From Candidatus Kuenenia stuttgartensis (GTDB lineage Bacteria > Planctomycetota > Brocadiia > Brocadiales > Brocadiaceae): a stretch of 32,000 nt of DNA. The notes under the pieces were generated by a model. That model ran no database searches. It was not told the DNA's origin and saw nothing but the letters and a program-made list of their open reading frames with translations. The position numbers and the translations under genes are program-made. This document shows, one piece after another, positions 13,539 through 31,150 of the stretch (the stretch's first letter is position 1; each line of letters opens with the position of its first letter). The stretch lies in NCBI RefSeq assembly GCF_900232105.1, contig NZ_LT934425.1, positions 1,770,001 to 1,802,000 on the forward strand, in the 5' to 3' direction.

Positions 13539-13689
13539 AAATTTGGTAACACTTTAGTTTTTTGAAAAAGTAGATGCGAAGCATTTGCCACCTTTGGGTT
13601 TGAATGCATTTATGACAATTTACGGTAAATGCTTCGCCCCTACAATGCGATTATTGGAATTTTCAAAAAACTAAAGTGTTACTAAATTT
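13539..13689. repeat. 151-bp palindromic MITE-like element with 30-bp terminal inverted repeats
   Basis: Left arm aaatttggtaacactttagttttttgaaaa (13539-13568) matches the reverse complement of the right arm (13660-13689) at 29/30. An inner pair gcgaagcatttgcc / ggtaaatgcttcgc is also present. The 23-mer gtaacactttagttttttgaaaa recurs at 18183 and, diverged, at 18728. Confidence 0.7.
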
Positions 13690-13740: not shown

Positions 13741-15752
13741 CTAGCGTGAGTTTATCACGAAATAAGGTGTAAGACAAAGACATCAAGTTGCAATCCAATG
13801 ATTTGTATCGGGTTGCGACTTTTTTTGTCTAAAAAATTATGTATACACTGAATAATACTATATTTATATTGCATTATATGCCTGTATATACTATTATACA
13901 CGGAGTATTAATCTATTACGTATACACTAACAACTAATAGCCATGGCTACCATTCAATCTAAAAACTCCAGAGGTTATAAATATTGGTATATTGTCGAAT
14001 CGCGGCGCGTTAACGGCAAGCCCAGGCCCATCGTCCTGGCCTATCTTGGCAAGGCAGACGATTTATTAAAACAACTGCAAGGTCTTACCGAAAAATTACG
14101 GCTCAAATCTTATTCACATGGCGCGGTAGCCGCATTGCTAAGTGTGGCCAATGCCCTGGACGTCCCTTCCGTGATTAATAAATATATAAAGTCGCCACGG
14201 CAGTATTGTGCTAAAAAACCTGTTCGAAATAATCTGACCGCCGGAAGTACCCTCTTGTTGGGTGCCGTGGGGAGAGTGTGTGTGCCTACCAGCAAAAGAG
14301 GATGGTGGGATTGGGCAAAGACGACTACTGCCGAATACTTACTCAGACACAGCTTGAGTAAAATAGACAGTCAGCATTTCTGGGATTTGATGGATGCACT
14401 TCCTGAAGAATCCATTGCAGAAATCGAGCGCGAATTAATTGAAAAGACATTTAAAACATACAACCTTCAAAGCGACACACTGTTTTTTGATACAACCAAT
14501 TTTTTCACGTATATCGACACAACTAATCTGCGATGCACTATTGCCCGGCGGGGGAAAAACAAACAAAAGCGATACGATCTCAGGCAGGTCGGGTTGGCGA
14601 TGGTCGTTACACGTAACGACATGATACCGTTGTTTCACCATACCTATCAGGGGAACATGGCGGATGCAAAGGTGTTCAGCGCGGTTCTTGAGACGATAAA
14701 AGACAGGATGACCGGATTAGGTTTCGACAGCAAAAAGCACACTATTGTTTTTGATCGTGGAAACAATTCCATGGACAATATGGCTATTGTAGAGAGATTG
14801 GCATTGCATTACGTTGGAGCGCTTACACCGTATCATCACAAGCAGTTGGTAGGGGATGCCATGTGTAATTTCAGGGAATATGACGTTGACGGCAGTAAGA
14901 TACAGGTGTACCATGACAAACGGGTTATTTGGGGGCAGGAAAGAACCGTTGTCGTATTTATTTCCGAGAAATTAAAGGTTGGGCAATTAAGGGGAATGTC
15001 TCAGTCTCTGGAAAAGGCAGAACATCAGTTAAAGCTCTTACAGCAGCATCTGTGTAATCCAAAGGGAAAGATGCGGGACAAAGAGGGTCTGGAGGATACG
15101 ATAAGAAGTGTAGTGAAATGTCAATTTGCGAAGGATGTTATCGATTGGTCGTTAAAAGAGGTATCTGAAGGCAAGTTTCAATTGAATTTTTCAATCGACC
15201 AGAAAAAGCTCGAAGAAATAGAAGGGGAACTGGGGTTCAGGATTCTTATGACAGACCATCACGATTGGGATACCGCGGACATTATAAAAGCCTACTATGG
15301 GCAATCAAAAATTGAACATGCCTTTAGAAATCTCAAGAACCCCTATCACCTTGCTTTAAAACCGCAATTTCACTGGACGGATCAGAAAATCAGGGTGCAT
15401 TTTTTTATTTGCGTCCTCGGATACCTAATGGCGGCGATTGTGTGGTATCAGGCAAAAGCGCACGCACAATTTAGTGGAACGTTAGATACCCTGTTAGACA
15501 CCCTTAATAATATAAGGCTTTCTGCTATGCTTGAAGAAACAAAGGCCAGAGGGAGAGTTAAGGCTACCTACAAATTGGAAGAAATGTCCGACAAGGAATC
15601 TCTGTTGATGAATGCGTTAGGCATTATGGATTTCCACAAACATCGGCTGAAACTTCAAGGACTCAGTGTATACAATTGATGTTGTGCTTAACGCATTGAC
15701 TGTATTTATGTTACGTTGCTTCATGCCTTATTTTGTGATAAACTCACGCTAG
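13741..15752 (+). mobile_element. IS1634-family insertion sequence, copy 1 (2012 bp)
   Basis: The terminal inverted repeats are ctagcgtgagtttatcacgaaataagg (13741-13767) and the reverse complement of 15726-15752, matching 26/27. There is a single 578-aa transposase. Three subterminal TATACAC motifs lie upstream of the ORF. No flanking direct repeat is visible. Confidence 0.88.
13943..15679 (+). CDS. IS1634-family (IS4-related DDE) transposase
   Basis: 578 aa. The N-terminus SKNSRGYKYWYIVESRRVNGKPRPIVLAYLGK is the typical IS1634-type opening. The C-terminal 257 aa are identical at the protein level to the ORF at 31225..31998. Confidence 0.88.
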   Translation: MATIQSKNSRGYKYWYIVESRRVNGKPRPIVLAYLGKADDLLKQLQGLTEKLRLKSYSHGAVAALLSVANALDVPSVINKYIKSPRQYCAKKPVRNNLTAGSTLLLGAVGRVCVPTSKRGWWDWAKTTTAEYLLRHSLSKIDSQHFWDLMDALPEESIAEIERELIEKTFKTYNLQSDTLFFDTTNFFTYIDTTNLRCTIARRGKNKQKRYDLRQVGLAMVVTRNDMIPLFHHTYQGNMADAKVFSAVLETIKDRMTGLGFDSKKHTIVFDRGNNSMDNMAIVERLALHYVGALTPYHHKQLVGDAMCNFREYDVDGSKIQVYHDKRVIWGQERTVVVFISEKLKVGQLRGMSQSLEKAEHQLKLLQQHLCNPKGKMRDKEGLEDTIRSVVKCQFAKDVIDWSLKEVSEGKFQLNFSIDQKKLEEIEGELGFRILMTDHHDWDTADIIKAYYGQSKIEHAFRNLKNPYHLALKPQFHWTDQKIRVHFFICVLGYLMAAIVWYQAKAHAQFSGTLDTLLDTLNNIRLSAMLEETKARGRVKATYKLEEMSDKESLLMNALGIMDFHKHRLKLQGLSVYN

Positions 15753-15873: not shown

Positions 15874-16496
15874 GTGCGGCAAAAAGCAAAGCTTCCGCTG
15901 CTAAGCGTATTGGAGACAGACATTCAAAGCCTGACCGGATTGCGATTGGATAGGGTACGCAGTCGGGAAGAGTCTGCATATTGGAATAGCTTGATTGATG
16001 AGTATCATTATCTGGGCTACAAGCCACTTCCTGGGGCGCAGGCAAGGTATTTGATTAGGTGGGACGGTGGAGATTTGGGGGCGATAGGTTTTTCCGCAGC
16101 GGCATGGAAAGTGGGAGTACGAGACCGGTGGATAGGGTGGGATGCGTTGACCCGCGAGAAGGGTTTACGCATGATTGTGAACAACGCGCGATTTTAGTAT
16201 TGCAAAATATCCGGGTGAAGAATTTGGCATCCCGTGTGCTTTCCCTTTGCGCGAGGCGAATACGAGTTGATTTTTTAGAGCCCTATAACTATGAACCGGT
16301 TCTTTTCGAGACATTTGTGGAAAAGGGTAGGTATTCAGGAGTCTGTTATCGCGCTGCGAATTGGCTTTACCTGGGAGATACAAAGGGAAGAGGGAAGTTA
16401 GACCGTTACCATATGCAGGGTGTTCCGGTCAAGGCCGTTTTTGTGTACCCGCTTGTTTGCAATCCCCGTCAGAGTTTGGCGGAGGTGGTGCAATGA
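15874..16496 (+). pseudogene. DUF4338 (DruA-like) protein gene, frameshifted and possibly 5'-truncated, upstream of a Tn5-like transposase
   Basis: Two ORF-track pieces (15874..16197 and 16059..16496) join into one DUF4338-like sequence: ...YHYLGYKPLPGAQARYLI...AAWKVGVRDRWIGWD...MIVNNARF | LVLQNIRVKNLAS...FETFVEKGRYSGVCYRAANWLYLGDTKGRGKLDR.... The join needs a 1-nt shift at the T-run 16192-16195. The frame is open only from 15838. Confidence 0.6.
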
Positions 16497-17917
16497 GCGA
16501 CTGGGGAAACGAGGAAACTGCAACGGCGGATTTTTCAGATGAGCGATTGAATAAACGGATGCGAGCGTTGCTGGATCGATTGGGTAGCAAGCCCGGAGCA
16601 AGTGTGCCAGCGGCCTGCAAGGGGTGGGATGAGACCATAGCCGCGTATCGTTTTTTAGATAATGAAAAAGTAACCGACCAAAAAGTATTATCATCACACA
16701 GGGACGCAACGCACAAGCGAATGGCGGGGCGTAAAGTGGTTCTCTGTGTTCAAGGCACGACGGAAATGGATTTTACGGGACGCAAACTCAAGGGGGCAGG
16801 GCCGCTCAGTATTCAGGAACGGATTGGTTTTTTCAACCACGTGACTCTGGCTGTTACGCCAGAGCGCCTTTGTCTGGGCGTGTTAGACGCAGAACTGTGG
16901 GTGCGCGACTTTGAAGACCGCAATAAAAATGACAAGCGCAAACAAAAGCCTATCGAGGAAAAGGAGAGTCATCGTTGGCTGGAAGGTTACCGTAGAGTCT
17001 GTGAGTTAAGCGAACAACTCCCCGGCACAATGCTCGTAAGTATTTCAGATCGGAAAGGTGATATCTACGAATGTTTTTGGGAGTCTGTGCGCATGGATGA
17101 GGGTAAGCGGGCGGAGTTTATAATTCGTGGTTGCCATGACCGAAGATTGCCGGAGAAGCTGGAAGATGGATGCTATAAAAAGTTGATGGAGGAGGTATCG
17201 GGAAAACCCATTTTGGGAGAGGTGGAATTCAAAATTCCCAAAACAGAGAACCGTTCCGCCCGAAGGGTGGTACAGTCGGTGAAGGCTTGCCGTGTTCGAC
17301 TCAAGCCTCCATATCGCAAAGGAGAAATGATGCCTGAAGTGGAAATCAATGTGGTGTTCGTCGAAGAGATCAATCCTCCAGGAGGAGGAGAGCCGATCGC
17401 ATGGTTGCTGCTCACCAGCCTCCCCATAGACACCTTCGGGCAAGCGTGTCTCGTGGTGGAATATTACCTTTGCCGATGGCAGATAGAGATGTATTTTAAA
17501 GTATTAAAGAGCGGTTGCAAGATAGAAGAGCGTCAATTGGAGACAGCGGAGCGTATCAAGCCGTGTATTGCTCTTTATATGATAGTGGCATGGCGGGTAT
17601 TGTTTGTTACCATGCTTGGAAGGGAATGCCCGGATTTGCCGTGTACAGCGCTTTTAGAGGATGATGAATGGAAACCCGTGTATATGATTGCCAAAAATGA
17701 AGCTCCACCCGAAACCCCGCCATCGCGCGTAGACTTTACCTTAATGGTATCAAGTCTGGGAGGATACTTAAATCGCAAATGCGATGGCCCACCAGGCCCA
17801 AAAACCATGTGGGTTGGCCTGCAGCGAATGGTAGACTTCACATTGGCATGGAAAGCCTTTGGGCCTGTGCAACCGAAAACACGGAATGGAAAAGATGTGT
17901 ATAAACATAAGGGTTGA
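16493..17917 (+). CDS. IS4-family, Tn5/IS50-like transposase
   Basis: The ORF-track frame is 16361..17917. The likely start is the ATG at 16493, after ggaggtggtgca, overlapping the DUF4338 stop as ATGA. The N-terminus WGNEETATADFSDERLNKRMRALLDRL...AAYRFLDN is Tn5-type DNA-binding. The DDE core includes YYLCRWQIEMYFKVLKSGC, and the tail GGYLNRKCDGPPGPKTMWVGLQRM is Tn5-like. The ends of this IS were not found. Confidence 0.85.
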   Translation: MSDWGNEETATADFSDERLNKRMRALLDRLGSKPGASVPAACKGWDETIAAYRFLDNEKVTDQKVLSSHRDATHKRMAGRKVVLCVQGTTEMDFTGRKLKGAGPLSIQERIGFFNHVTLAVTPERLCLGVLDAELWVRDFEDRNKNDKRKQKPIEEKESHRWLEGYRRVCELSEQLPGTMLVSISDRKGDIYECFWESVRMDEGKRAEFIIRGCHDRRLPEKLEDGCYKKLMEEVSGKPILGEVEFKIPKTENRSARRVVQSVKACRVRLKPPYRKGEMMPEVEINVVFVEEINPPGGGEPIAWLLLTSLPIDTFGQACLVVEYYLCRWQIEMYFKVLKSGCKIEERQLETAERIKPCIALYMIVAWRVLFVTMLGRECPDLPCTALLEDDEWKPVYMIAKNEAPPETPPSRVDFTLMVSSLGGYLNRKCDGPPGPKTMWVGLQRMVDFTLAWKAFGPVQPKTRNGKDVYKHKG

Positions 17918-18003
17918 GGGGTGGGTAAAAAGCCGTTGAAGTGCATGGTGCTTAGGGAATTGGATTTTTCTATTGTACCGTAGCGCTCAGCAGTCTAAAG
18001 TCG

Positions 18004-18060
18004 GCAAAATTGCAGATTGAGGACTGATTTCGTGCTTGTTTGGTTCTGGCTATGCCAACT
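18004..18060 (+). repeat. Diverged second copy of the repeat seen at 1779-1848
   Basis: aaattgcagattgaggactg is identical in both copies. It is followed by a related stretch, atttcgtgcttgtttggttctggctatgccaac here versus attttcatgcttgctgaacactggctttgccagc at 1813-1848. This copy has one GAGGACT unit where the other has three. Confidence 0.6.
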
Positions 18061-18094
18061 TAGGATTAATGAGGACTCTGATATTACATTCCCA

Positions 18095-18119
18095 AATTCT
18101 GGCGACACCATACTTAATT
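18095..18119 (+). repeat. 25-bp inverted-repeat partner (left) of 20421-20445
   Basis: aattctggcgacaccatacttaatt is the reverse complement of aattaagtatggtgtccccagaatt (20421-20445) at 24/25. The motif resembles the right arm of the hairpin repeat family (atatgggaagtgtcccctaatt). Confidence 0.7.
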
Positions 18120-18182
18120 TTGAATACTCCCATTTTTTAGCAATTAGTAAGCCTCATCGTGTTTCCCAATATCAACAAAAAC

Positions 18183-18317
18183 GTAACACTTTAGTTTTTT
18201 GAAAAAACTCTATAAAATTAAGGATTGCGTGTTTTATAGGAAATATAGAAGTATGGACACTTCCTTTATTTTTCCCCCAGATCAAGCAAGAAATATGGGA
18301 TGTGTCCCTAATTCTCC
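18183..18317 (+). repeat. Dispersed hairpin repeat, copy B (~135 bp)
   Basis: It starts with gtaacactttagttttttgaaaaaa. It then has attgcgtgttttat and a hairpin atggacacttcc ... gggatgtgtcccta, whose loop is tttatttttcccccagatcaagcaagaaatat. It is about 80 percent similar by eye to copy C and abuts the 5' break of the ATPase fragment. Confidence 0.7.
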
Positions 18318-18323
18318 AATTCA

Positions 18324-18719
18324 GGAGTTTCACCGGAAGAGAAAAGCACTATAGTCAATAAAGTTCCGAATGCTCTTATGGTAGGCGATGGAGTAAACGA
18401 CGCCCTTGCCATGTCATCCGGTTCCATTGGCATTGCGGTTCTGGGCAGCATAGAGGCGAGCTTGGTCGCAGCGGACATCTATTCAACGAAGGAGGGGGTT
18501 TCTCCTGTTTTAGACCTGATTTTATTAAGCAAAAACACCCTCTCTATTATTAAGAGAAACCTTGTAATTTCGTTTCTTTATAACTTTGCCGGCGGAATAG
18601 CCGCTCTTTTCGGAGGTATCTCGCCCCTTGTTGCGGCAATACTTATGCCTGTAAGTTCTCTCGTTATACTACTTTCTACGGTAACAGGCACAAGATTTAC
18701 CAGAAAATTCAATAAATGA
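18324..18719 (+). pseudogene. 3' fragment of a heavy-metal (P1B-type) P-type ATPase
   Basis: The frame is open from 18312. It reads GVSPEEKSTIVNKVPNALMVGDGVNDALAM...IIKRNLVISFLYNFAGGIAALFGGISPLVAAILMPVSSLVILLS, which covers the hinge motif GDGxNDAP-like and the last two TM helices only. Everything upstream of the hinge is missing and is replaced by repeat copy B. Confidence 0.85.
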
Positions 18720-18727
18720 TAACACTT

Positions 18728-18856
18728 GCAACACTTTAGTTTTTTAAAAAAGACTAACGTGTTACAAAATTGCGTGTTTTATTGAAATATAGGGACGCAT
18801 CCCTTATTTTTCCACCAGATCAAGCAAGCAATATGGGAAGTGTCCCCTAATTCCCT
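18728..18856 (+). repeat. Dispersed hairpin repeat, copy C (~129 bp)
   Basis: gcaacactttagttttttaaaaaa ... attgcgtgttttat ... agggacgcatccc (18791-18803) ttatttttccaccagatcaagcaagcaatat gggaagtgtcccct (18835-18848) aatt. It is a direct repeat of copy B, on the other side of the ATPase fragment. Confidence 0.7.
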
Positions 18857-18881
18857 TTCGCGCGTCGGCAGCAGTGCCGTG

Positions 18882-19244
18882 TTAGCTGCGCTGTTGGCAC
18901 TCAATTGCTTGGATATTTTCTATCTTAAGCTTGCGTGTATCCGGCCAATAAATAGTTGTTACATTAAACGAAAAACGATGCTTATCAAAAAACCGATGAA
19001 ATTCTTTTTTTAACAATGCAAAGATAGTAATTGAGATTCTCTTCGACGCCTTGAGTGGATCAATCTTTAGATTAGAGTATTTAAAATTCCATGCGGTCCT
19101 ACCTTGTAGAAATAGTTGTTCTTCGACGAGGTCAGGCAGGGCCGGAAGATACTTCGCTTCCAGCTCGCGCTTTACCCAAAACCGCACGGTATACAATTCT
19201 TTGGAAAGGATAAGATCATTTTCTTCTGGCATGTCCGTTATCAC
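18882..19244 (-). CDS. Hypothetical protein (120 aa)
   Basis: ORF-track ORF with a GTG start (an ATG lies 4 codons in). I recognise no motif. Its stop lies in AGCTAAC, followed by the small hairpin cggcagcagtgccg. Confidence 0.45.
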   Translation of the reverse strand: MITDMPEENDLILSKELYTVRFWVKRELEAKYLPALPDLVEEQLFLQGRTAWNFKYSNLKIDPLKASKRISITIFALLKKEFHRFFDKHRFSFNVTTIYWPDTRKLKIENIQAIECQQRS

Positions 19245-19314
19245 TTGAAGCGGTTAAATTTATATCAGACTTCCCAAATGTCACATTATTTTACGGCAAT
19301 TATGAAATATATTT

Positions 19315-19563
19315 TTATTTGTATGCCTTACTGCTAAGTGCTTGAATCATATTGGCGAACTCCAGAAATATAATCATATATGCAGTTGCAACTTGTTCAT
19401 GATCTTTGTTTATAGTTGACAAGTATGCTACGGTTGCGGGAATACATCTTGTGGTCGGGTTTAAGTACGCGGCTCCCTCGTAATGATCGTCGACTTCATC
19501 AACATTGATCATGACCCGCCCTTCCGCACTTCCTTGATAGTAGCCGATCCATTGCCCCTTCAT
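19315..19563 (-). CDS. Hypothetical protein (82 aa)
   Basis: ORF-track ORF starting 16 nt after the attC-like site. I recognise no motif. The odd hydrophobic C-terminus suggests it may be a fragment. Confidence 0.4.
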   Translation of the reverse strand: MKGQWIGYYQGSAEGRVMINVDEVDDHYEGAAYLNPTTRCIPATVAYLSTINKDHEQVATAYMIIFLEFANMIQALSSKAYK

Positions 19564-19578
19564 AATCCTCCCTTCAGT

Positions 19579-19650
19579 GCATAACGACCAAGCTCGCCTG
19601 CCGCTATGGAGCGTAGCGGAATAGCGGTCAGGTGGAGTGCTTTGTTAGGC
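19579..19650 (-). other. attC-like structured recombination site (72 bp), candidate a
   Basis: The minus strand reads GCCTAAC-AAAGCACTCCACCTGACCGCTAT-TCCGCTACGCTCC-ATAGCGGCAGGCGAGCTTGGTC-GTTATGC. The ends fit RYYYAAC and approximately GTTRRRY and pair 6/7. An asymmetric unpaired spacer is followed by a long bulged stem and a 13-nt loop. The brnA stop codon lies inside GCCTAAC. Confidence 0.45.
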
Positions 19651-19923
19651 TTTCTTTGTTTTTACCTTACGCTTTTGTGACAGCAGCGGAATTAAACAAC
19701 GCAAAGCCCTATTCACAGATTCTGAGTCTGGGAAATACGCTCTAACATCTGGTTCTAGTATAACCGACCCCTCTTTTGGCGTCACATCCTTAACAACAGT
19801 TGTGCCATTTGCTTCATGAACAGTAATTGTATATCCAGCCTGCATGGCTCTATAATGCTTACCACGTACTCCACTACTGAAATCATATTTAGCGCGCATA
19901 TCGTTATTCTCAAGCTGTGCCAT
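19645..19923 (-). CDS. BrnA-like antitoxin (YDFS...VNxALR type)
   Basis: The ORF-track frame is 19645..19944. The likelier start is the ATG at 19923, after gaaggaggtaaataaa. It reads MAQLENNDMRAKYDFSSGVRGKHY...LEPDVRAYFPDSESVNRALRCLIPL, a pattern I associate with antitoxins partnered with DUF497/BrnT toxins. Confidence 0.6.
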   Translation of the reverse strand: MAQLENNDMRAKYDFSSGVRGKHYRAMQAGYTITVHEANGTTVVKDVTPKEGSVILEPDVRAYFPDSESVNRALRCLIPLLSQKRKVKTKKA

Positions 19924-19924
19924 T

Positions 19925-20071
19925 TTATTTACCTCCTTCTTCATAAAGTGACAGCTCCGACTGACTTGCCTTGCGACAACTGATAATACGAATATTTGAA
20001 CTTCGCTCAGTATAAACCACTACCAACACATGACCCTTATCAGAGCTTCCGATGTCAATATTCCTCGGCAT
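19925..20071 (-). pseudogene. 5'-truncated BrnT (DUF497) ribonuclease toxin
   Basis: This 48-codon ORF falls below the track cutoff. MPRNIDIGSSDKGHVLVVVYTERSSNIRIISCRKASQSELSLYEEGGK matches only the C-terminal half of BrnT (…VV.TeR...IRIISaRkA...E...Y). The N-terminal ~45 residues are absent. Its stop lies 1 nt before the brnA ATG. Confidence 0.65.
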
Positions 20072-20083
20072 CGGGTAAAAACG

Positions 20084-20293
20084 TTATTTTATACAGAGTT
20101 CTTCCCAGAGGGATTGCCAGTCTTTTCCTTTTACCTGCATATCATCCTGTCTTGCTTTGCGCATGTTTTTTATAAACTCAGGATTTTGTGATAAAAGCCA
20201 GTCTTCAAGGTCTTCTTTTGTATCAGCGGTTTCAAAAACACTCAGTGGAAATGTAACTGTCTGCTTTTTTGATTTTTTCCTGGTTAATGCCAT
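20084..20293 (-). CDS. Small antitoxin-like protein (69 aa from the internal ATG)
   Basis: The ORF-track frame is 20084..20347. The likely start is the ATG at 20293, after aaaggaaaaattgc. The tail EDLEDWLLSQNPEFIKNMRKARQDD resembles the C-terminal tails of some type II antitoxins. No cognate toxin follows. Confidence 0.35.
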   Translation of the reverse strand: MALTRKKSKKQTVTFPLSVFETADTKEDLEDWLLSQNPEFIKNMRKARQDDMQVKGKDWQSLWEELCIK

Positions 20294-20408
20294 GCAATTT
20301 TTCCTTTCTTTTTCTTTATACACCTTCAGAATTAAAACCATCTGCAATCAGAATTCCACCGTCCAAAATCCTGACACAGCGAAAGCTTAACCATCTTTCA
20401 ACACAGAA

Positions 20409-20537
20409 TCAATAATCAATAATTAAGTATGGTGTCCCCAGAATTACCTCATGGCTGCCTTTTCGATTAATTTCTTTAAATTCCATCCGTTTTAAAGCTG
20501 CCAAAACCTCTCGTCCTGATAATATCTGGAGTTTCAT
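20409..20537 (-). pseudogene. hicA: 3'-truncated HicA mRNA-interferase toxin
   Basis: This 42-codon ORF falls below the track cutoff. MKLQILSGREVLAALKRMEFKEINRKGSHEVIL is the HicA N-terminal half up to the catalytic GSH. The sequence then runs into the 25-bp repeat at 20421-20445 (GTPYLIIDY stop). Its ATG overlaps the hicB stop as ATGA. Confidence 0.7.
20421..20445 (-). repeat. 25-bp inverted-repeat partner (right) of 18095-18119
   Basis: aattaagtatggtgtccccagaatt. It marks the exact point where hicA homology ends. Confidence 0.7.
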
Positions 20538-20734
20538 ATCGCCACTTCATAAACTTTGTGTTTACTGTTTTCTGTTAAGTCCTCGTCAGGTTCTAAATAT
20601 AATTCTATTGCTTCCCGAATATTCTGCAATGCCTCATCTTCTGTCCTTCCCTGACTCCAACAGCTTTTTAACGATGGACAATATGCAGCAAAGTAACCAT
20701 CTTCTCCTTGCTCCAGTATAACTTTTATTTTCAT
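20534..20734 (-). CDS. hicB: HicB-family antitoxin (UPF0150)
   Basis: 66 aa. MKIKVILEQGEDGYFAAYCPSLKSCWSQGRTEDEALQNIREAIELYLE is the classic HicB N-terminal domain pattern. Confidence 0.85.
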   Translation of the reverse strand: MKIKVILEQGEDGYFAAYCPSLKSCWSQGRTEDEALQNIREAIELYLEPDEDLTENSKHKVYEVAI

Positions 20735-21228
20735 ATCTTTTATTCTCCTCGTTGAGTTTTATTAATCTATCATATTTATCGAGTAGTCATGGCAATAGTC
20801 GTTGATTCTAATTCCTACCGCAGTTACTTTGATTTGGTATTCTGCCATCCAAAACTATCTCAAAATAACTGAAATCCACAACAATGACACGTCTCTTTGC
20901 CGTACTAAAACATTTATGAATATGGGGAAAGCAACCTTTTTCCTCTTTATTGGTTGAGTAACTGTTCTATTTCCTTTTCCAGTTCTTCTTTTCTTACTGG
21001 ATCAATAGTTTGTTGCCATATTTTTAAGAGGTTGCTTGATTCATAAATTTTTTGCCGTTCTTCGGGAGTAACTTCAATAGTATCGAGCAACGATTTTGCC
21101 TCATTTTGCATAATTTTTGGAAAAAACTTTAATACATCAAAGCTATCAAGACTAGCCTCTAGCGTGCTTTGGGCAAGAAGGACTTTTGCTATAGCTTTGC
21201 TGGCATCGGAAATTTTTTTCTCGGCTTG

Positions 21229-21735
21229 TTAGGCATGTTCTAAAGCCTTTTTCGCATCTTCACGCTCTTTTTTTGCTTCATTATATTGCCAATAAGCAAC
21301 AACTAAAAGAAAAATAGAAATGAACGTCGCAACATGATTAATATACTGGTTAAACCACTGGATACGCTTTTTCTGATAGTGCCCACAGTGAAAGCATATC
21401 TTTGCATTTTGTTTAATTTTCTCTTTGCAATAATAGCAGTCTACATTTTGATTTTCAGTAATTTGTTTTTTGTGATAATTGGTGTATCTATCAATCGGAT
21501 ATCTAATCGCCATAATAATCACAAAGACAACGATACCTGAAAATACTCCACCGTAATTATTGCACGTGATCTCAAGGAAAGCAGCGAATTCTGGCCTACT
21601 ATGAATTAAATAGTACAATAAGTAATCTCCAGGATAAAAACAAAGCCACTTAAACCACAACCACACGTCACTAATTGTGGTTGAGCCGCTACAGTTCATA
21701 TCCGCTACGAACCCCCATTCCCTTGGATCGGACAC
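21229..21735 (-). CDS. Membrane protein with a cytoplasmic zinc ribbon; the frame continues past an in-frame TAA to 20947
   Basis: 168-aa ORF with a GTG start after aggagacataataa. It has two TM helices, CYYC-x11-CFHC, a third TM helix and the start of a coiled coil. After the TAA at 21229-21231 the same frame stays open for 93 more codons (QAEKKISDASKAIAKVLL...EKEIEQLLNQ), ending at 20947. Confidence 0.55.
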   Translation of the reverse strand: MSDPREWGFVADMNCSGSTTISDVWLWFKWLCFYPGDYLLYYLIHSRPEFAAFLEITCNNYGGVFSGIVVFVIIMAIRYPIDRYTNYHKKQITENQNVDCYYCKEKIKQNAKICFHCGHYQKKRIQWFNQYINHVATFISIFLLVVAYWQYNEAKKEREDAKKALEHA

Positions 21736-21858
21736 TTATTATGTCTCCTATTTACGATCCACATATAAAAGTTTTCAAATTACGGCATATCGCTCATAAA
21801 TTATTTTGAGCAATTTTTCTTCCATTTCCTTGTTAATTTTCTTCGTGATCACAAAGAC

Positions 21859-21931
21859 TCCTAACTTTAAATTATGGGGTTTTGGTGGAGCGCCAGCGCA
21901 ACCAAAATCCCTCTTGAACAATTTGTTAGAT
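21859..21931 (-). other. attC-like structured recombination site (73 bp), candidate b
   Basis: The minus strand reads ATCTAAC-AAATTGTTCAAGAGGGATTTTGGT-TGCGCTGGCGCTCC-ACCAAAACCCCATAATTTAAA-GTTAGGA. The ends fit RYYYAAC and approximately GTTRRRY. AAATT/AATTT pair after a 3-nt bulge, followed by 6 extrahelical nt and an 11-bp stem. The loop shares CGCT..CGCTCC with candidate a. It begins 12 nt after the SIR2-like stop. Confidence 0.45.
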
Positions 21932-21942
21932 ATCAAATTTTC

Positions 21943-22836
21943 CTAATAATAAAGTTTTGAAAACCAGTCTTGAAGGTCTTTCAATGAGTCCGTTTTATAA
22001 TGCTCTCCATTTCTTAAGAACTTACCTTCAATAGAAACAGAATACTTCCATTCAAAAGTCCTTCTTGGCCAGATAGCTATAGATGATTTCCAAAAATCTG
22101 AATTAATAATACTATGCCCAAGAGGGAAATAATTTTTCCAACATTTAACAATTTCCTCTTGTTTTTTTATATCAATAATTTCCGCATGACAAAACTGTTT
22201 GAAATTATTTGTTGGTGTAGGATTCCAATTTTCAAGTAAAAGCTGACGAGCATTAAAATCTGTGGCTGGTCCAGAATAACCAAATATGGTTATTTGAAAT
22301 GCTTCTTTTAATTTTTCTGTAACCTTTTCCCAATCTCTTTTTATTAAATTATCATTAGTATAATCTTTATTTTCAACAGGATAAAATAGTTTGCTTTGTT
22401 TTAATGTTGTATTACATATTGTGCATATCTCAGATGGTACACCTAAAATATCATGCTCATTGCATGTTGCAAAAGCTACACAACCATGTAAAAAACGTAT
22501 ATCAGGTAACTTTGCTACATCTTTATTTCTTCTATAAGCTTGGATTAGGAATGGATCCCAATTAAATGTGGCAATAATGTCTTTTGAACGAAGTCCTAAT
22601 ACAAGATAATCATATATCGTTGGATAATCAGGTAAGTGCAAACTTTCAAAATAAGATACAATTGTTTTTTCAATTTTTAATAATTGAGAAGAATAAATGT
22701 CTTTTTGTTTAAGCCATGAAAATTGGCTTTCAAAGTTTCCAGGTGGCGGGCAAGCATTTTCCATTAACTCCTTCCACTCTGCAACTACCCCTTTTATATT
22801 GGGTAATTCGTCTTTCTCTTGTAACATTTTAACCAA
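21943..22836 (-). CDS. SIR2-like (SIR2_2/DUF4917-type) protein
   Basis: 297-aa ORF with a TTG start at 22836 or an ATG at 22827. The motifs occur in sirtuin order: DIIATFNWDPFLIQAY (TTNYD-like), IRFLHGC (HG), a four-Cys module C-x6-C-x13-CTIC in the position of the sirtuin zinc ribbon, and ITIFGYSGPATD (GYS..D). The N-terminal GAGxS NAD-binding loop is not evident. The gene is visibly AT-rich; a sampled line is about 28 percent GC. Confidence 0.5.
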   Translation of the reverse strand: MVKMLQEKDELPNIKGVVAEWKELMENACPPPGNFESQFSWLKQKDIYSSQLLKIEKTIVSYFESLHLPDYPTIYDYLVLGLRSKDIIATFNWDPFLIQAYRRNKDVAKLPDIRFLHGCVAFATCNEHDILGVPSEICTICNTTLKQSKLFYPVENKDYTNDNLIKRDWEKVTEKLKEAFQITIFGYSGPATDFNARQLLLENWNPTPTNNFKQFCHAEIIDIKKQEEIVKCWKNYFPLGHSIINSDFWKSSIAIWPRRTFEWKYSVSIEGKFLRNGEHYKTDSLKDLQDWFSKLYY

Positions 22837-22856
22837 TGTATTTATTGCAATTTTTA

Positions 22857-23288
22857 TTATTTAACGGCTTGGGTAACGGGCGCGCCGTAAGGAGCATCCT
22901 GTTGACCTAATGGTGAAGTCACTTTCTTTCCAATGGTTGCGAGGATGAAATCTTCCAGCTTTTCTCTCAATTCCGGTTCATTTTCCCATACGATGTGATT
23001 GTATTACCTTGTATCGAAATTGATATTCTGCGAGTCATCATGTCGGACACACCAGATGACAGGCAGCCCTAAGCCGTATGCAAAACCTGCCTCATAATAG
23101 ACTCCAGGCTTTTGCTGCGTTACATCCGCTACAATAAATCCAGAGTTTCGTATCGCGGCACTGGTTTTCGCATCAATTCGTTCAAGATGCGGCTACGAGT
23201 CCACCCGATATGGCCGATAACCCATGGCTTCAATGTCCGGTGCTATTGCATTCTCGTAGACGGGGAGCAAGGTCTTATCAAATGACAT
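22857..23288 (-). pseudogene. Nucleoside 2-deoxyribosyltransferase-like (NDT/Rcl-fold) gene with two in-frame stop codons
   Basis: It is missing from the ORF track because of the stops. The minus-strand frame reads (KTKAFVA)MSFDKTLLPVYENAIAPDIEAMGYRPYRVDS-TAG(23195-23193)-PHLERIDAKTSAAIRNSGFIVADVTQQKPGVYYEAGFAYGLGLPVIWCVRHDDSQNINFDTR-TAA(23006-23004)-YNHIVWENEPELREKLEDFILATIGKK.... FIVADVT..P.VYYEAGFA.GLG.PVI is the NDT/Rcl signature. The gene ends 20-30 nt before the SIR2-like start. Confidence 0.6.
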
Positions 23289-23310
23289 CGCTACGAATGC
23301 TTTGGTTTTT

Positions 23311-23380
23311 AAATATAGGGACACTTCCCTTATTTTCCCAAACATGATCACGCAAGCAATATGGGAAGTGCCCCCTAATT
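23311..23380 (+). repeat. Dispersed hairpin repeat, copy D (hairpin module only)
   Basis: aaatatagggacacttccc ttattttcccaaacatgatcacgcaagcaatat gggaagtgccccctaatt. The stem is 13-14 bp and the loop is conserved with copies B and C. It lies between the helicase-nuclease stop and the NDT-like gene start. Confidence 0.7.
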
Positions 23381-23438
23381 ATCCAAACACATAATCACTA
23401 ATCAAGATGTGACCCCATGCTCTCCTTGTATTCGCGCT

Positions 23439-23735
23439 TCATGACTTGGGGAAAATCTCTCGTTCCTCCAGCGCACGCCAAAGCCCTTTTAGCGCGTCAT
23501 CTTTGTTAGAGTAGAAGGCCGATTCTCTGACGCGGAAGAACTCCCAGCCGCACCGCTTTAATTGCAGCTGGCGTTGCATATCCTCTTCGTATCGGTTGGG
23601 GCCATGCCAATGGTCACCGTCACACTCGACTGCCAGGCGCGCGTTGCCTCCTTCTATAACAATATCGATTCGCTTGCCAGCGATTTCATACTGCGGAATG
23701 ACGTTGAAACCCCGCCTCGCCAACTCCAATGCAAC
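23439..23735 (-). pseudogene. Helicase-nuclease gene, piece 3 of 3: C-terminal DUF559/Vsr-like (REase_MTES_1575-type) endonuclease domain
   Basis: LELARRGFNVIPQYEIAGKRIDIVIEGGNARLAVECDGDHWHGPNRYEEDMQRQLQLKRCGWEFFRVRESAFY is a DUF559-type nuclease pattern. The frame joins piece 2 exactly once IS 23736-25587 and one ATGCAAC copy are removed. Confidence 0.85.
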
Positions 23736-25587
23736 GGATGTTCACCCCAAGTCAAAAAACAAAAGTGCCGTAAAAGCCTTATATTTATTGACTTTTACGC
23801 CGAACAGCAAGCTTTTTTCTAGTGACTACCCGTATGTTCCGGCTTGGCAATACTTCTGGCAACTTTATCTGTAATGCCTCTAATAATTCATGTGATTGTT
23901 GCCGCGGACGCGGGATCTTCTGGCAACTAGCTTTTTGGCCTTTGATTGTTACTTCCATCGAACAAATGGTCGTCAATTGTGCGAGACCTTCCTCTACCGT
24001 CAAGTCAAAATTCTTCCACGCTCTGCGCAGCCTTCGAATTATCATGTACGCAAGCATTACCACAAACACATGTCCCCGTGTACTATCCTCCTTTCTTACA
24101 TACACCGGACGAACCTCCAAATTCACCGTCTTACAGTCCCGAAACGCCTTCTCCACTTCCGTTAAATCCTTGTATCGTTCATGTACCAGATTGGTATCCG
24201 CCTCGTTCTCCTCAAGATCAGTCTTGATTGCGTAACAACCATCAAGGTATGATGCCTCCTTTAATGCTTCCTCATCTCTCTCTATCTTTAGCGTCCTATC
24301 CTCTTCTTTTATCTGCACCCACCCATCAAGTTTCAATCTCGTTAGCCTTTCCCTTGTTGTTTCCAGTGCCTTCGATACTGACGACTTAGGATGTTCCTTC
24401 AGATAACTGTTCTTCTTCGCGATGTATTTCTCTATACTCTGTAATTTTGATACACGGGTCTTTGACATCTCTTCCGCCCTTACCGGATTGCGCCTCAGAA
24501 TATATCGAACCTCATCATCCTTTATCTCGCAGAGCTTTTCTTCGAACAATCCTAATTGCAGTATCCCTTTATTTATCAACGACTCTATCTGCGGCTTGGT
24601 TATCGCCGTTATGTAATGAAACCCTTCCGGTAAACTTTCGATTTGCACCGTCTTGATCATCCCACGATCTCCTACAATCGTTACATCTTTGCATCCAAAC
24701 CGCTCTAATACCTTCTTTACCTGAGATTCAAAGGTCTTCGGATCCTGGGTGTTGCCCCTAAATACTTCTGTTGATACCGGCTCCCCGGATTCATCACAAA
24801 GCATACCGATCACTATCTGTTTTTTCCTCTTTTTGCCGTCACGATTATACCCGTACTCACCAAAATGATTCGACTTCCCCTCTAAATAACTGCTCGTCAC
24901 GTCATACAAAAACAACTTCGGCTTATTGCCTCCTCGTCTTAACTCAAACAGCTTTCGCTCTATCTTTGCCTGATTCTCTGACAACCATGACAAATTATCG
25001 TACAGATTGTTCTCGTCAAACCCACGCTTCATATCCAGGACGTCACCCGCAGCATGTATCTGCGCCAGCCTTACTGCAGACAGTCTTGACCCCTGGCCTA
25101 TTACCCTTGCCATTACTTGCCAAAGCGCCAGCTTTCCTTCAAAGTCCTTTCCCAATGCCTCTTCTATCCCTAATTCCTTTGCCACTTGGTACACGCTCCA
25201 CGCTGCTCCCACAGACAAACCCTCATGGAGTTTCACCGATTCTGACAATGCGCCCAATGCACAGAGATCGTCTTTATGTGCGAGTGCAAGTCTTATCGCT
25301 TCAATCTCCAGGGGAGTGCAATTCGACAGATTCGCAATGGTGCGTTTCTTGACCTTCCCATCCTCACGGTACGATTCCCGCAGAAGGGTAGATCGATAGA
25401 TTTTTTTACCGGATTTTGACTTGTTCTCTACAATATGCATGTCCACCATTGTACAGATAACAACCATTATCCGTCAAGTATATTGTCGGATAATAACAAT
25501 ATATTAGTGACTACATATTTATTAAAAATACAGCCTTAACAAACTATGTATTAAGCACTTATGCGTTTTGGCAGGGGTGAACATCCG
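23736..25587 (-). mobile_element. Second IS1634-family element (1852 bp) inserted in the helicase-nuclease gene
   Basis: The ends are ggatgttcaccccaagtcaaaa (23736-) and the reverse complement of ...ttttggcaggggtgaacatccg (-25587), sharing a GGATGTTCACCCC core. A 7-bp direct repeat ATGCAAC lies at 23729-23735 and 25588-25594. Confidence 0.85.
23785..25467 (-). CDS. IS1634-family transposase (different lineage from the 578-aa one)
   Basis: 560-aa ORF. The likely true start is MHIVENKSKSGKKIYRSTLLRESYREDGKVKKRTIANLS at 25440, an IS1634-type N-terminus. A DDE region follows. Confidence 0.85.
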   Translation of the reverse strand: MVVICTMVDMHIVENKSKSGKKIYRSTLLRESYREDGKVKKRTIANLSNCTPLEIEAIRLALAHKDDLCALGALSESVKLHEGLSVGAAWSVYQVAKELGIEEALGKDFEGKLALWQVMARVIGQGSRLSAVRLAQIHAAGDVLDMKRGFDENNLYDNLSWLSENQAKIERKLFELRRGGNKPKLFLYDVTSSYLEGKSNHFGEYGYNRDGKKRKKQIVIGMLCDESGEPVSTEVFRGNTQDPKTFESQVKKVLERFGCKDVTIVGDRGMIKTVQIESLPEGFHYITAITKPQIESLINKGILQLGLFEEKLCEIKDDEVRYILRRNPVRAEEMSKTRVSKLQSIEKYIAKKNSYLKEHPKSSVSKALETTRERLTRLKLDGWVQIKEEDRTLKIERDEEALKEASYLDGCYAIKTDLEENEADTNLVHERYKDLTEVEKAFRDCKTVNLEVRPVYVRKEDSTRGHVFVVMLAYMIIRRLRRAWKNFDLTVEEGLAQLTTICSMEVTIKGQKASCQKIPRPRQQSHELLEALQIKLPEVLPSRNIRVVTRKKLAVRRKSQ

Positions 25588-27422
25588 ATGCAACATCAAT
25601 CTCAAACCAACTTTCAAATGGCGCGGGGGGATTTACAACTCGTCGATTATCTTGAAAGGTGCGCCGCTCAAGCTCATTACGCTCAATTCCTGCAATCTGT
25701 TGTGGTTTCGTGTTCTCGAAGAAACTAAGGAGTCGTCGACGAAGACAGGAGGCGCTGAGTTCGTCACAAGTGACAGAGTGGAACAAAATCATCTGGTCGC
25801 GGGCACGGCTGGCGGCAACATTGAACCGCCGTTCGTCCGAAGCCTTCGTTAGAGGGCCAATTCTTTCATTGTTGGCCGCAACAAGCGATAGCAACATAAT
25901 GTCTCGCTCATCACCCTGAAAACTGTATGGATTACCGCAGACCAAATGCCGCTGCTCCATTTCCTCGGCGCCCAACTGTTCAAGCAATTGGTTCTCAATC
26001 AAAGCCGCCTGTGCTTCGCCCTGAAGCACAACCACACCCATCGACTTGTCGTCATACCTGGTGTCGCCACACAGTTCGACGATCTTTTTAACGATGGCTT
26101 CGGCCTCAGGGCGATTGATCGTCCGGTTGTATGAACCTTCGCGATACCCTCCATTTACAAAAACAAGTTCAAGGGGAGCTAATCGGTTAGGCCCATATTG
26201 CCTCAAGGGAATCAACGGCGTATCTGAATAGCAAAGGTCATTGCTGAAACGAATAATCTCCGGCATGCAGCGGAAGTGCTCGCGTAGGGTAATTCGTTGC
26301 GTTCCATAGCGAAGTTTACCGTGATCAAACAGGCTGCTTTCGACATCGAATGACGACTTAAATTGGAAATCATGTAGGAATTCCTCCATCAAACGATGCA
26401 CGGCATCTCGAGGCAAGCCTACAGCAGCCGGGCTGATCTGCTTATCATCGCCAACAATTAATACCTTCTTGCCTAGATAAAATAGAGGAAGTGCCTCTAC
26501 TCCACATTGCGATGCCTCATCTATGATAATGACATCAAACATACCAGGTATGGGATCCACCGTGTCCCAAACTCGGTGGAGAGGCATAACCCATGCCGGA
26601 ACCGCCTCACGGCACTCATTGAGGTGCTGTTGAGCTTCACGCCTGTGGCGTGGCGCGTGTTTTCCTGTGCCTTTACCAAGCCGCCTCATAGACTGCTGCC
26701 AGGCTTCCATATGGCGTCGATGATTGCTATTGAGTCGGGAAAAGCAAAATGACCAGGCATGGAGCGAGGCGAGTTTAGCTATAATGGCGTTGATCTCGTC
26801 CTCGATCTGTTTGGCGTGCTTGGCGAGGGCAGGGATGTCCTCCTGCCGTATGTATTCCTCAATCCAATATTGCGCCTGCGCCCAATGCCAAGCGTTTCCA
26901 ATTTGTTGAAGTCGCTCATCCCAATATGGCTCGTCACAGGTTCGCATCAATTCATCCGTGAGACGTGGGAGTCGGTGGCTCATTTCCGAGAGGTATTCAT
27001 CCATCTTCTGAAGGCGCTGACGCTCCTTTTCCAATTCCTGAATCTTGCTCGCGGCATTCGCGAATCCATCTACATTGCGGTCACGAATCGCGTGTAGCAA
27101 TTCGTTCGTTACCGGATGTGCGTTGCCCATGGCGGCAACGTACGATACCGGAGCCTCAATGCTTTGTATTTCTTCAGCTACAAGCCGCTTGCGGAGACGG
27201 ATATGCGCAAGGCCGCATGACGCGATTATCCTTTCAACCTGAGATTCGTCAGCCCAAAAGGGTTCGCTTATAGCCTGAAACTGGCGTATGATCCCACGGC
27301 ATTCTCCAATGAGCGTTTCAAGCGACAAGGCATTTTCAAGAGCGTCACACAGTGATTTGAGCGCAGTCAATTGTAGAGCATAAGGGCCTTGAATCTTATC
27401 GGTTCGCCCCACCCAGAACCCC
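25588..27422 (-). pseudogene. Helicase-nuclease gene, piece 2 of 3: SF1 helicase motifs II-VI
   Basis: The ORF-track frame is 25559..27412. Its last 9 codons are IS-derived and its 'M' is a GTG. It carries VIIIDEASQ (II), LIVGDDKQISP (III), REHFRCMPEIIRFSN (IV), FQGDERDIMLLSLV (V) and RRFNVAASRARDQMILF (VI), as in the Upf1/DNA2-like AAA_11/AAA_12 type. Confidence 0.85.
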
Positions 27423-28806
27423 CATAAGCGCTAACTTGTTTTATTGACAAATTTTATTCATCATGGTATTTTTATGTTAATTATCCCGCTAATCACTCTA
27501 TAGGAGGATAAAGCCATGATGAGAGAAGATTGGGATCTTCTAAGAACTTTCTTCCCAAACGATTGGAAAAGTTTAGCCGTTGATACAAATGCTTTAAAAG
27601 GCTTGCGCAAGGATAAATCTGAAGAAAAGCTTCTTCGAACATTATTAATTCATTTAGGATGTGGCTATTCATTGCGTGAAACAGTAGTTCTAGCCAAGCG
27701 TGCTAACTTAGCAGATTTATCCGATGTTGCCTTATTAAAGCGATTAAAAAAGAGCAAAGAATGGCTATATAAATTATGTTTATCTTTATTCCGTGAGCGT
27801 GGCCTCCAAATTAATAAACGGAATAATTTTCATCTTCGCTTATTTGATGCAACAACAGTAAAGGAACCTGGGAAAACAGGAAGTCTTTGGCGCATTCATT
27901 ATAGTATTGAGGTTCCTTCATTATCTTGCGATTTCTTTAAACTTACGGGAACTGAAGGAGAAGGCACAGGAGAATCTTTTCGGCAGTTTCCGATGAAAAA
28001 AGATGATTATATTATAGCTGACAGAGGTTACTGTACTGGCCAAGGAATTCATCATGCAACAAGGAAAGGCGCTTATCTTAGCGTTAGAGTTAATTCGCAA
28101 TCTCTACGGATATTCGGCGAAGAAAAGAAACCCTTTCCTTTATTGAAAGAAATCCAATATTTAAAAAGACCCCTTGCTATAAAATCATGGAACGTTTTTA
28201 TTCCAAACGTTGATAATACTGAATATGTCAAAGGTCGTCTTTGTATAATACGCAAAACAGAAGAAGCCATTAAAATAGCTCATAAAAAACTTAAAAGACA
28301 TGCAAGCAAAAAGGGCATTGAACTAAAACCGGAGACCCTTATTTATGCCAAGTACGTAATAGTATTCACAACGTTTCCTGAAAATCAATTTACCGCTTTT
28401 GATATCTTAGAATGGTATCGAGTTCGATGGCAAATTGAACTGGTCTTTAAAAGATTTAAACAAATAGCACAATTTGGACACTTACCTAAATACGATGATG
28501 ATAGCTCAAAAGCTTGGCTTTATGGCAAACTATTCGTTGCTCTTTTGACAGAAAAACTAATAGATTTTGCTACGTCTTTTTCCCCCTGGGGATACTTCAT
28601 TGTCAAGCAAGAAGACTAAAAGCAAATGGCGTGAATTTGCTTTTATGCTTAATCAAGTAAAACGGGCTATAGAACCAGCGTTATCATTACAGGAAGTTCT
28701 TAAGTGCTGGAATGACATTGCTTGTTCTTTAGCAGAAAATACAAGAATCCGAAAAACACAGATATCAAAATACTTCGAGCATACCTAAAACAAGTTAGCG
28801 CTTATG
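27423..28806 (+). mobile_element. IS4-family insertion sequence (1384 bp) inserted in the helicase-nuclease gene
   Basis: It has perfect 21-bp terminal inverted repeats: cataagcgctaacttgtttta (27423-27443) and taaaacaagttagcgcttatg (28786-28806). An 11-bp direct repeat CCCAGAACCCC lies at 27412-27422 and 28807-28817. Confidence 0.9.
27516..28788 (+). CDS. IS4-family DDE transposase, with a frameshift near its 3' end
   Basis: The 367-aa ORF 27516..28619 carries DDE_Tnp_1-type motifs (LEWYRVRWQIELVFKRFKQ). The +1 frame is open from 28564 to 28788 (…SKWREFAFMLNQVKRAIEP…). The only homopolymer in the overlap is T5C5 at 28577-28586. Confidence 0.75.
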
Positions 28807-31114: not shown

Positions 31115-31150
31115 CCTATGGCTATCTGCCTGTTGATCGTTTAAGAGTTC

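Follow-up and report, generated by a model that had tools for sequence, protein, structure and literature searches.

Integron cassette arrays and the Kuenenia locus

Clusters of attC sites lacking an integron-integrase (CALIN) are a category that was reportedly defined by IntegronFinder, in the work of Cury et al. 2016. In such clusters at least two attC sites lie less than 4 kb apart, in one orientation and with no integrase gene (intI) nearby, and the cargo consists of short promoterless open reading frames (ORFs) and toxin-antitoxin genes. Sedentary chromosomal integrons, such as the superintegron of Vibrio, carry toxin-antitoxin cassettes and defence-type cargo, have stop codons inside the R'' box of their attC sites, and vary in cassette content between close strains. 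An intI gene has been reported for K. stuttgartiensis, in a clade with those of Treponema, Chlorobium and Blastopirellula (PMC3607928). Class 1 mobile attC sites (aadA5, dfrA17, arr-3, aac(6')-Ib) represent a further well described group.

Here we analyse a window of 32,000 nucleotides of Candidatus Kuenenia stuttgartensis (contig NZ_LT934425.1, positions 1,770,001 to 1,802,000 of the forward strand); all coordinates given below without a locus name are positions in this window. We read the region from 18.8 to 23.4 kb as what is left of an integron cassette array without an integrase in its neighbourhood, that is, as a CALIN, at a probability of roughly 0.87. The region displays homology and architecture of attC sites, a uniform orientation, stop codons inside R'' boxes and events of decay, and it has no integrase in its vicinity. 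A preliminary description, made from the sequence alone, had proposed an integron cassette cluster without integrase; this is supported by the present analysis and the label CALIN is correct, qualified by a score of 8.4 bits for one of the sites and by the decay (see below). CALIN is an already known category; the novelty here is one in an anammox planctomycete, in a state of advanced decay.

The locus shares with other CALIN the spacing of adjacent attC sites (928 and 2209 nt), their single orientation, the lack of intI within 4 kb, and the cargo of short promoterless ORFs and toxin-antitoxin genes. It differs in that it is heavily decayed (mutation of R'', loss of L pairing, pseudogenes, and a deletion that removed an attC), in that it is bounded by a lineage-specific hairpin repeat of 70 nt, and in that one interval between attC sites holds four gene units. 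With sedentary chromosomal integrons, including the Treponema, Chlorobium and Kuenenia intI clade (PMC3607928), it has in common the attC architecture, the stop codons in R'', the toxin-antitoxin cassettes, defence-type cargo (a TIR-like gene), and a cassette content that varies between close strains, whereas intI, attI and the Pc promoter are missing, the attC sites are not homogeneous, and there are only three to four of them. The layout of R and L boxes with extrahelical bases is that of class 1 attC sites as well. In contrast to the latter, the sites described here are chromosomal, come without resistance cargo, and belong to another sequence family, with a loop CGCT(N)CGCTCC that is widespread in environmental attC sites.

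By analogy with established integron biology, each cassette unit would comprise one ORF or one toxin-antitoxin pair with an attC site behind it, and the bottom strand of this site (the plus strand of the window) is expected to fold into a hairpin. The features recognised by an integron integrase supplied in trans would be the R''/R' and L''/L' pairs, a spacer that stays unpaired, and two extrahelical bases (G and T); cutting and exchange of the strand at the G|TT of R' would excise or insert whole cassettes. The plus strand hairpins of the Kuenenia array presumably are, or were, substrates for such an integrase.

Architecture of the attC sites

Three full attC sites are present, at 22919-22859 (site 3), 21931-21859 (site 2) and 19650-19579 (site 1), together with a probable truncated fourth site (18887-18864). 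All of them lie on the gene strand, at the 3' ends of ORFs; every gene called in the interval 18882-23288 shares the minus-strand orientation of the sites, as previously stated for the credible genes from 18.9 to 23.3 kb. The preliminary description had named sites 1 and 2 with their component parts on the minus strand, and reading of both strands confirmed these; both are real, while site 3 and the probable truncated fourth site had been overlooked. Folding with DNA parameters yields hairpins for both strands of sites 1 and 2, and the plus strand folds better (z -2.6 and -3.3) than the minus strand (-1.8 for both).

Site 1 (19579-19650) is the best preserved. It reads GCCTAAC ... CCTG-A-CCGCTAT / ATAGCGGCAGG ... 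GTTATGC, with R'' GCCTAAC, a spacer of 5 nt, an L box, a stem of 11 bp, the loop TCCGCTACGCTCC, and R' GTTATGC. Two bases of the L box are extrahelical, C and A if read on the top strand and G and T if read on the bottom strand. With two mismatches in this box the site fits the consensus structure of the family (see below), and its R boxes are complementary at 6 of 7 positions. Close relatives exist elsewhere: an attC of Brocadia (L060) is 93% identical to site 1, sites in three further loci (L036, L042, L054) are nearly identical to it, and near-identical sites also occur in arrays that bear intI, e.g. L205 and L219.

Site 2 (21859-21931) reads ATCTAAC-AAATT-GTTCAAGA-GGG(A)TTTTGGT, followed by the loop TGCGCTGGCGCTCC, then ACCAAAACCC and finally GTTAGGA. 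Its R boxes are complementary at 5 of 7 positions, or at 6 if a T-G wobble is counted, and both extrahelical positions are kept. The L'' half GTTCAAGA looks canonical; the L' half is decayed, with CATAAT where CTTAAC is needed, so that two to three L pairs are broken. The site is identical in a sister strain, isolate Bin_40 (locus L040, see below), where the ORF in front of it stops inside ATCTAAC.

Site 3 (22859-22919) reads ACTTCAC ... GTTAAAT, fits the consensus structure of the family, and lies between a TIR-like pseudogene and a gene called SIR2-like. An A-to-C change has altered its R'' box, which is ACTTCAC in the window and ACTTAAC in L040, and the R boxes are accordingly complementary at 5 of 7 positions in the window, as opposed to 6 of 7 in L040.

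The three sites differ strongly in sequence. Direct alignment of sites 1 and 2 displays little that is shared beyond CTAACAAA and the loop; the two belong to one attC family, as their earlier designation as homologous implied, and they are neither copies nor close homologues of each other. The window contains 3 occurrences of the shared loop motif CGCT(N1-2)CGCTCC, where 0.06 would be expected, which bears out the earlier remark on it. A third match, on the plus strand at 27015-27026, is inside a helicase gene, has no attC context, and was taken as a chance occurrence. A strict search for RYYYAAC ... GTTRRRY (45-160 nt) misses both sites, because GTTATGC and GTTAGGA each deviate at one position, and returns only an unrelated pair at 31096-31218. 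The previously described RYYYAAC and GTTRRRY-like ends are present, but R' is not a strict GTTRRRY. Both R' variants are also seen in genuine attC sites from other arrays (GTTATGC in L085 and L095), and the strict expression is too stringent as a test for attC.

The half-site at 18864-18887 (AGCTAAC-ACGGC-ACTGCTGCCGAC) is probably, judging from its sequence, the 5' half of a fourth attC. It includes, in AGCTAAC, the TAA stop codon of an ORF of 120 amino acids, and it ends a few bases before a hairpin repeat at 18782-18852. Its left-half similarity score is 16, against at most 12 for the other 27 CTAAC positions, which places it third of 30, behind sites 1 and 2; its best match is an attC of 58 nt, L007:5909-5966. 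Neither cmsearch on the cut sequence nor half-site hidden Markov models detected it, so that this tentative assignment draws on the pairwise comparison of left halves.

A widespread family of attC sites

Scoring for attC was performed with covariance models built in this analysis from sites of other genomes, in place of the model of IntegronFinder. A scan for the pattern CTAACAAA-N18-26-CGCT-N1-2-CGCTCC, with one genome per species, returned at least 120 loci (L002-L121), from Vibrio, Aeromonas, relatives of Halomonas, Pseudomonas, Alteromonas, Desulfobacterales, Nitrospiraceae, Brocadia, Scalindua, Chlorobaculum, Spirochaetales, and some archaeal metagenome-assembled genomes (MAGs). Among the first 100 of these loci, 74 matches to the pattern were attC-shaped. 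The first model (R1) was derived from an alignment of 51 pattern-selected sites, excluding the Kuenenia locus. In the family consensus the R boxes are paired and the spacer is not, the L stem contains two unpaired (extrahelical) columns, and there is a terminal stem; compensatory changes were seen in 16 of the 22 predicted pairs. In the same first 100 loci, 42 further attC sites without the search pattern were detected on the same strand, which brings the R1 total to 116 sites; 26 loci have two or more, with a maximum of six per 8 kb. Since the training sites of R1 had been chosen by a pattern derived from the window, an independent model (R2) was built from 22 array sites in which the loop motif is absent, and its base pairs were limited to the R boxes and the outer L stem. 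A third model (R3) was built from all 116 sites.

By tblastn with IntI1, integrase homologues were found no more than 8 kb away at 10 of the genome loci, and in 9 of 120 metagenome contigs (L138-L257) that had been collected with a pattern specific for the subtype of site 1. Three neighbouring integrases were checked and scored 453-471 bits for the family TIGR02249 'integron integrase' (cut-off 265). The attC shape, the same-strand arrays, the covariation, and the adjoining integrases identify the family as genuine attC, and the two elements noted first, sites 1 and 2, are members of it.

On class 1 attC sites as controls, R2 gave 39.1 bits for arr-3, 33.0 for dfrA17, 29.5 for aac(6')-IIc, 27.3 for aac(6')-Ib4, and 18.3 for aadA5. 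Site 1 scores in the same range, with 33.9 bits under R2 (E ~1e-6), 71.9 under R1, and 74.5 under R3. Site 3 reaches 14.8 bits under R1, 17.7 under R2 (E 0.016), and 20.6 under R3 (E 0.011), and its intact version in the sister strain (L040:622-682) 23.5 bits under R1 and 28.3 under R2. Site 2 has 57 bits under R1 and 54.1 under R3; under R2 it has 8.4 bits (E 4.3), which is not significant and reflects the lost pairing between its L' half, CATAAT, and L'' GTTCAAGA. Sites 1 and 3 thus attain a significant score and are the two top matches of R2 in the window, where the best match outside the array has 11.3 bits. Sensitivity of R2 is incomplete, as the model missed some cassette ends in another array (L259). 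Model R3 finds exactly three sites at E < 0.05 in the window, all on the minus strand. No match to Rfam was obtained in the window at the gathering threshold, nor at E up to 1 for positions 18000-23600; no attC family was matched in this search, which is therefore uninformative with regard to attC.

The loop of an attC site is usually considered its variable part. The loop (T)CCGCT(N)CGCTCC is seen repeatedly in arrays assigned to many phyla, as are entire attC sites with about 90% identity to site 1. Among the groups concerned are Gammaproteobacteria, Desulfobacterota, Nitrospirota, Planctomycetota, Chlorobiota, and Spirochaetota, as well as archaea (Bathyarchaeia, Methanosarcinaceae, and Nanobdellati MAGs), with the general caveat that MAG contigs may be mis-binned. 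One attC sequence type would then be found almost unchanged across many bacterial and some archaeal phyla, which bears on the distance over which cassettes travel.

Cassette genes and comparison with a sister strain

Comparison was made mainly with L040, a locus titled Candidatus Kuenenia sp. isolate Bin_40, which is 98% identical over the region of interest. It is collinear with the window and better preserved, and its contig ends where site 1 would lie. The window lacks 1.25 kb that are present in L040 (3592-4843), with the junction at 20062/20064. Located on this additional segment of L040 are a gene for a ParE toxin, one hairpin repeat, another hicBA pair, which is complete, and, in front of brnT, a fourth attC (L040:4598-4666, between hicBA and brnTA; 28.1 bits under R2).

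The first cassette gene (22914-23288, minus strand) is a pseudogene similar to TIR proteins and nucleoside deoxyribosyltransferases (PADLOC TIR effector, E 2.4e-11; Pfam Nuc_deoxyrib_tr, E 3.9e-5). It has two in-frame stop codons (TAG and TAA), which are the same in the window and in L040:205-640, and is otherwise conserved and in frame; we read it as an old pseudogene. Its ancestral stop codon was inside the R'' box of site 3, as the TAA of ACTTAAC in L040. The second cassette gene (21943-22827, minus strand) has been called SIR2-like; it has no match in Pfam, NCBIfam or PADLOC. In L040 it encodes 339 amino acids with a GAGAS motif, which an in-frame deletion of 117 nt has removed from the window copy.

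Downstream of site 2 follows an ORF for a membrane or zinc-ribbon protein (20947-21735, minus strand), which is intact in L040 with 262 amino acids and is a pseudogene in the window, where a TAG stop codon is found at 21229-21231. A hicB antitoxin gene (20534-20734, minus strand; Pfam HicB_lk_antitox, E 3.2e-6) is accompanied by a truncated hicA toxin gene (20409-20537, minus strand; Pfam HicA_toxin, E 8.6e-4, profile positions 1-23 only), the 3' part of which has been replaced by a half copy of a hairpin-repeat end (20421-20445). HicA is intact in L040, with 71 amino acids. An orphan antitoxin-like ORF (20084-20293, minus strand) comes next. Its counterpart in L040 is followed by the ParE-family toxin gene (ParE_toxin, E 8.1e-9) of the segment that is missing from the window, which is the partner of the orphan.

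Of the brnT toxin gene (19925-20071, minus strand; Pfam BrnT_toxin, E 1.3e-10) only the C-terminal half is left, corresponding to profile positions 42-77 of 77. The ORF of 99 amino acids after it (19645-19944, minus strand) is presumed to encode the antitoxin and has no family match. Its TAA stop codon is located in the R'' box of site 1, so that the earlier statement of a stop codon inside GCCTAAC holds; the label 'brnA' that had been attached to this gene is without family support, and only the truncated BrnT is recognisable. Behind site 1, an ORF of 82 amino acids (19315-19563, minus strand) has a ribosome-binding site, GGGAGGA, that starts 6 nt past R', and the ORF of 120 amino acids (18882-19244, minus strand) is the last one of the array. 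Family searches gave no match for the presumed 'brnA' and for the ORFs of 82, 120 and 297 amino acids. Stop codons are found inside R'' in four cassettes in total, two in the window (the ORF after brnT and the ORF of 120 amino acids) and two in L040 (the TIR-like and the SIR2-like gene).

Near-identical copies of the locus exist in several anammox-type assemblies and metagenomes, and seven independent assemblies are 99.9-100% identical over it. A different arrangement is seen in L134:985-1556 (GCA_013328955.1, contig JAANMV010022692.1), where the same gene of 82 amino acids and the same attC as in the window are preceded by an Unstab_antitox / ParE (ParDE) pair and a GGDEF gene, which replace brnT and its partner. 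Divergence from the window is restricted to the first 18 nt of the attC and the upstream sequence. This arrangement, as far as its sequence goes, suggests homologous exchange between similar attC sites, and not a clean crossover at G|TT. In another locus (L136) a junction corresponding to window position 20373 was considered as a cassette boundary and rejected, as there is no attC or GTT boundary at this place.

State of the array and alternative explanations

The array is decayed: R'' of site 3 is mutated, the L pairing of site 2 is lost, most of the genes are pseudogenes or truncated, and there is an internal deletion of 1.25 kb. Judging from these mutations, most of the array may now be inert cargo, with site 1 at best still recombinogenic. 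We also read the array as largely frozen, since the locus is 99.9-100% identical in the seven independent assemblies. Several observations speak against a CALIN. Four gene units follow one another without an intervening attC in the 2.2 kb that separate site 2 from site 1, which is atypical for cassettes and which the deletion relative to L040 explains only in part. Under the independent model R2, site 2 obtains no more than 8.4 bits (E 4.3), and its high scores under R1 and R3 are partly due to the loop motif and CTAACAAA, with which the training set had been collected. The truncated fourth site is supported by a modest similarity score, the divergence of L134 starts inside the 5' part of the attC and not at G|TT, and the intI of this assembly was not located.

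Three other explanations have to be considered, of which continued activity of the array comes closest, albeit unlikely in our view. An integrase of Kuenenia acting in trans would still excise and reinsert cassettes, and the locus would be a working reservoir instead of a relic. In accordance with this, the R2 score of site 1 falls among those of functional class 1 attC sites (33.9 vs 18-39 bits), its R' variant GTTATGC is in use in other arrays (L085, L095), the gene of 82 amino acids with its attC is found behind different neighbours in L134 and L136, and an intI has been reported for the species (PMC3607928). The sequence identity among the seven assemblies, the broken L pairing of site 2 together with the mutated R'' of site 3, the predominance of pseudogenes and truncated genes in the cargo, and a junction in L134 that is not at G|TT all argue against it. 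The elements might furthermore be generic intergenic palindromes that merely resemble attC, such as repetitive extragenic palindromic (REP)-type repeats or terminators. Their position after stop codons and the presence of other palindromic repeat families close by in the genome would be in keeping with that, but we regard it as very improbable: the stems are not followed by a run of T and the terminator scan does not report the sites, members of the family reside in arrays beside integron integrases, scoring is strand-specific and agrees with gene orientation, and no competing Rfam family is matched. Only three copies exist, all of them in the array, with none in the rest of the window under R1, R2 or R3, and none in an additional 30 kb or so of Kuenenia DNA, mostly of housekeeping character (R1 run on L122).

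The cluster might, on the other hand, be part of a complete integron, with insertion sequence (IS) insertions and rearrangements having moved intI and attI away from the cassettes. The region is indeed full of IS elements, a helicase gene upstream of the array is in three pieces where a metagenome locus (L129) has a single gene for 1489 amino acids, and the species is on record as having intI. In the IS-free L129, however, it is this helicase / MTES_1575 gene, and not intI, that directly precedes the array. In the window itself the upstream edge of the array is formed by the end of the helicase gene and a hairpin repeat, with no attI-like junction and no adjacent set of intI, attI and Pc as in a complete integron. 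A search by tblastn with IntI1 finds no intI in the window, in agreement with the earlier account, and genes called 10 kb beyond each end of the window include no tyrosine recombinase and are housekeeping, signalling and regulatory genes instead, so that no intI is found within 10 kb on either side. A protein search with an IntI of Nitrospiraceae gave 7999 integron integrases, none of them attributable to Kuenenia, and a candidate of Scalindua (L081) turned out to be a generic tyrosine recombinase. Counts of predicted promoters and terminators were the same as in shuffled sequence, and no Pc-like feature emerged. A split integron of this kind appears improbable to us, though less so than generic palindromes.

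Read as a CALIN, the array illustrates routes by which cassette arrays decay, i.e. point mutations in R'' and L boxes, erosion of toxin-antitoxin and defence genes, invasion by small palindromic repeats, and the apparent loss of an attC by recombination between duplicated copies of hicBA. The current understanding of integrons is unchanged. As a consequence for annotation, the genes of this region are cassette cargo, and mostly pseudogenes.

Hairpin repeats at the edges of the array

A hairpin repeat of about 70 nt, consisting of GGGACACTTCCC, a loop, and GGGAAGTGTCCC, has z values of -1.6 to -3.9 in RNA folding and no match in Rfam. One copy forms the upstream edge of the array (23308-23380, plus strand, GGGACACTTCCC ... 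GGGAAGTGCCCC), 20 nt before the first cassette ORF, and another one the downstream edge (18782-18852, plus strand), about 10 nt past the truncated attC. With a third copy at 18244-18314, the three full copies of the window are confined to an interval of 5.2 kb in which the array is situated, and two of the three border it; half copies are found at 18095-18119 and 20421-20445. The repeat has no copy in the rest of the window, in the 10 kb past its end, or in a 20-kb housekeeping locus of three other Kuenenia assemblies, and is thus absent from about 57 kb of other Kuenenia DNA examined. In L040 it is present at 162-233 and at 3861-3928, with one copy placed exactly where the attC of the ParDE cassette would be expected. 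One might speculate that the repeat is a small mobile element with a preference for attC sites, which it would enter or replace, and that it thereby delimits, or even mobilises, the cassette block; we consider this a long shot. If true, it would be a miniature element associated with attC, in the manner of IS1111-attC elements or group IIC-attC introns and much smaller.

A second family of palindromic repeats, GTAACACTTTAGTTTTTTGAAAA with its complement, is located at 13539-13568 / 13660-13689, 18183-18206, and 18728-18751. Owing to its ends, GTAAC ... GTTGC, the copy at 18726-18767 is a weak match to the attC model (12 bits, E 1.3); the family is probably unrelated to attC.

Genomic surroundings

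The helicase gene upstream of the array encodes AAA_11 / AAA_12 domains and a C-terminal MTES_1575/DUF559 domain, and is split in the window into three ORFs (23439-23729, 25559-27412, and 28802-31114, all on the minus strand) by transposase genes at 23785-25467 (minus strand) and 27516-28619 (plus strand). Positions 14904-15752 and 31152-32000 form an inverted duplication of 849 nt with 100% identity, i.e. two copies of one DDE transposase element with an ORF of 578 amino acids. Fragments of a DruA gene (Druantia-type defence) at 15874-16496 and 16361-17917 adjoin a Tn5-like transposase gene. Just downstream of the array, at 18378-18719, lies a stub of 113 amino acids from the C-terminus of a P-type ATPase, which together with the DruA fragments marks a junkyard-like, IS-rich neighbourhood.

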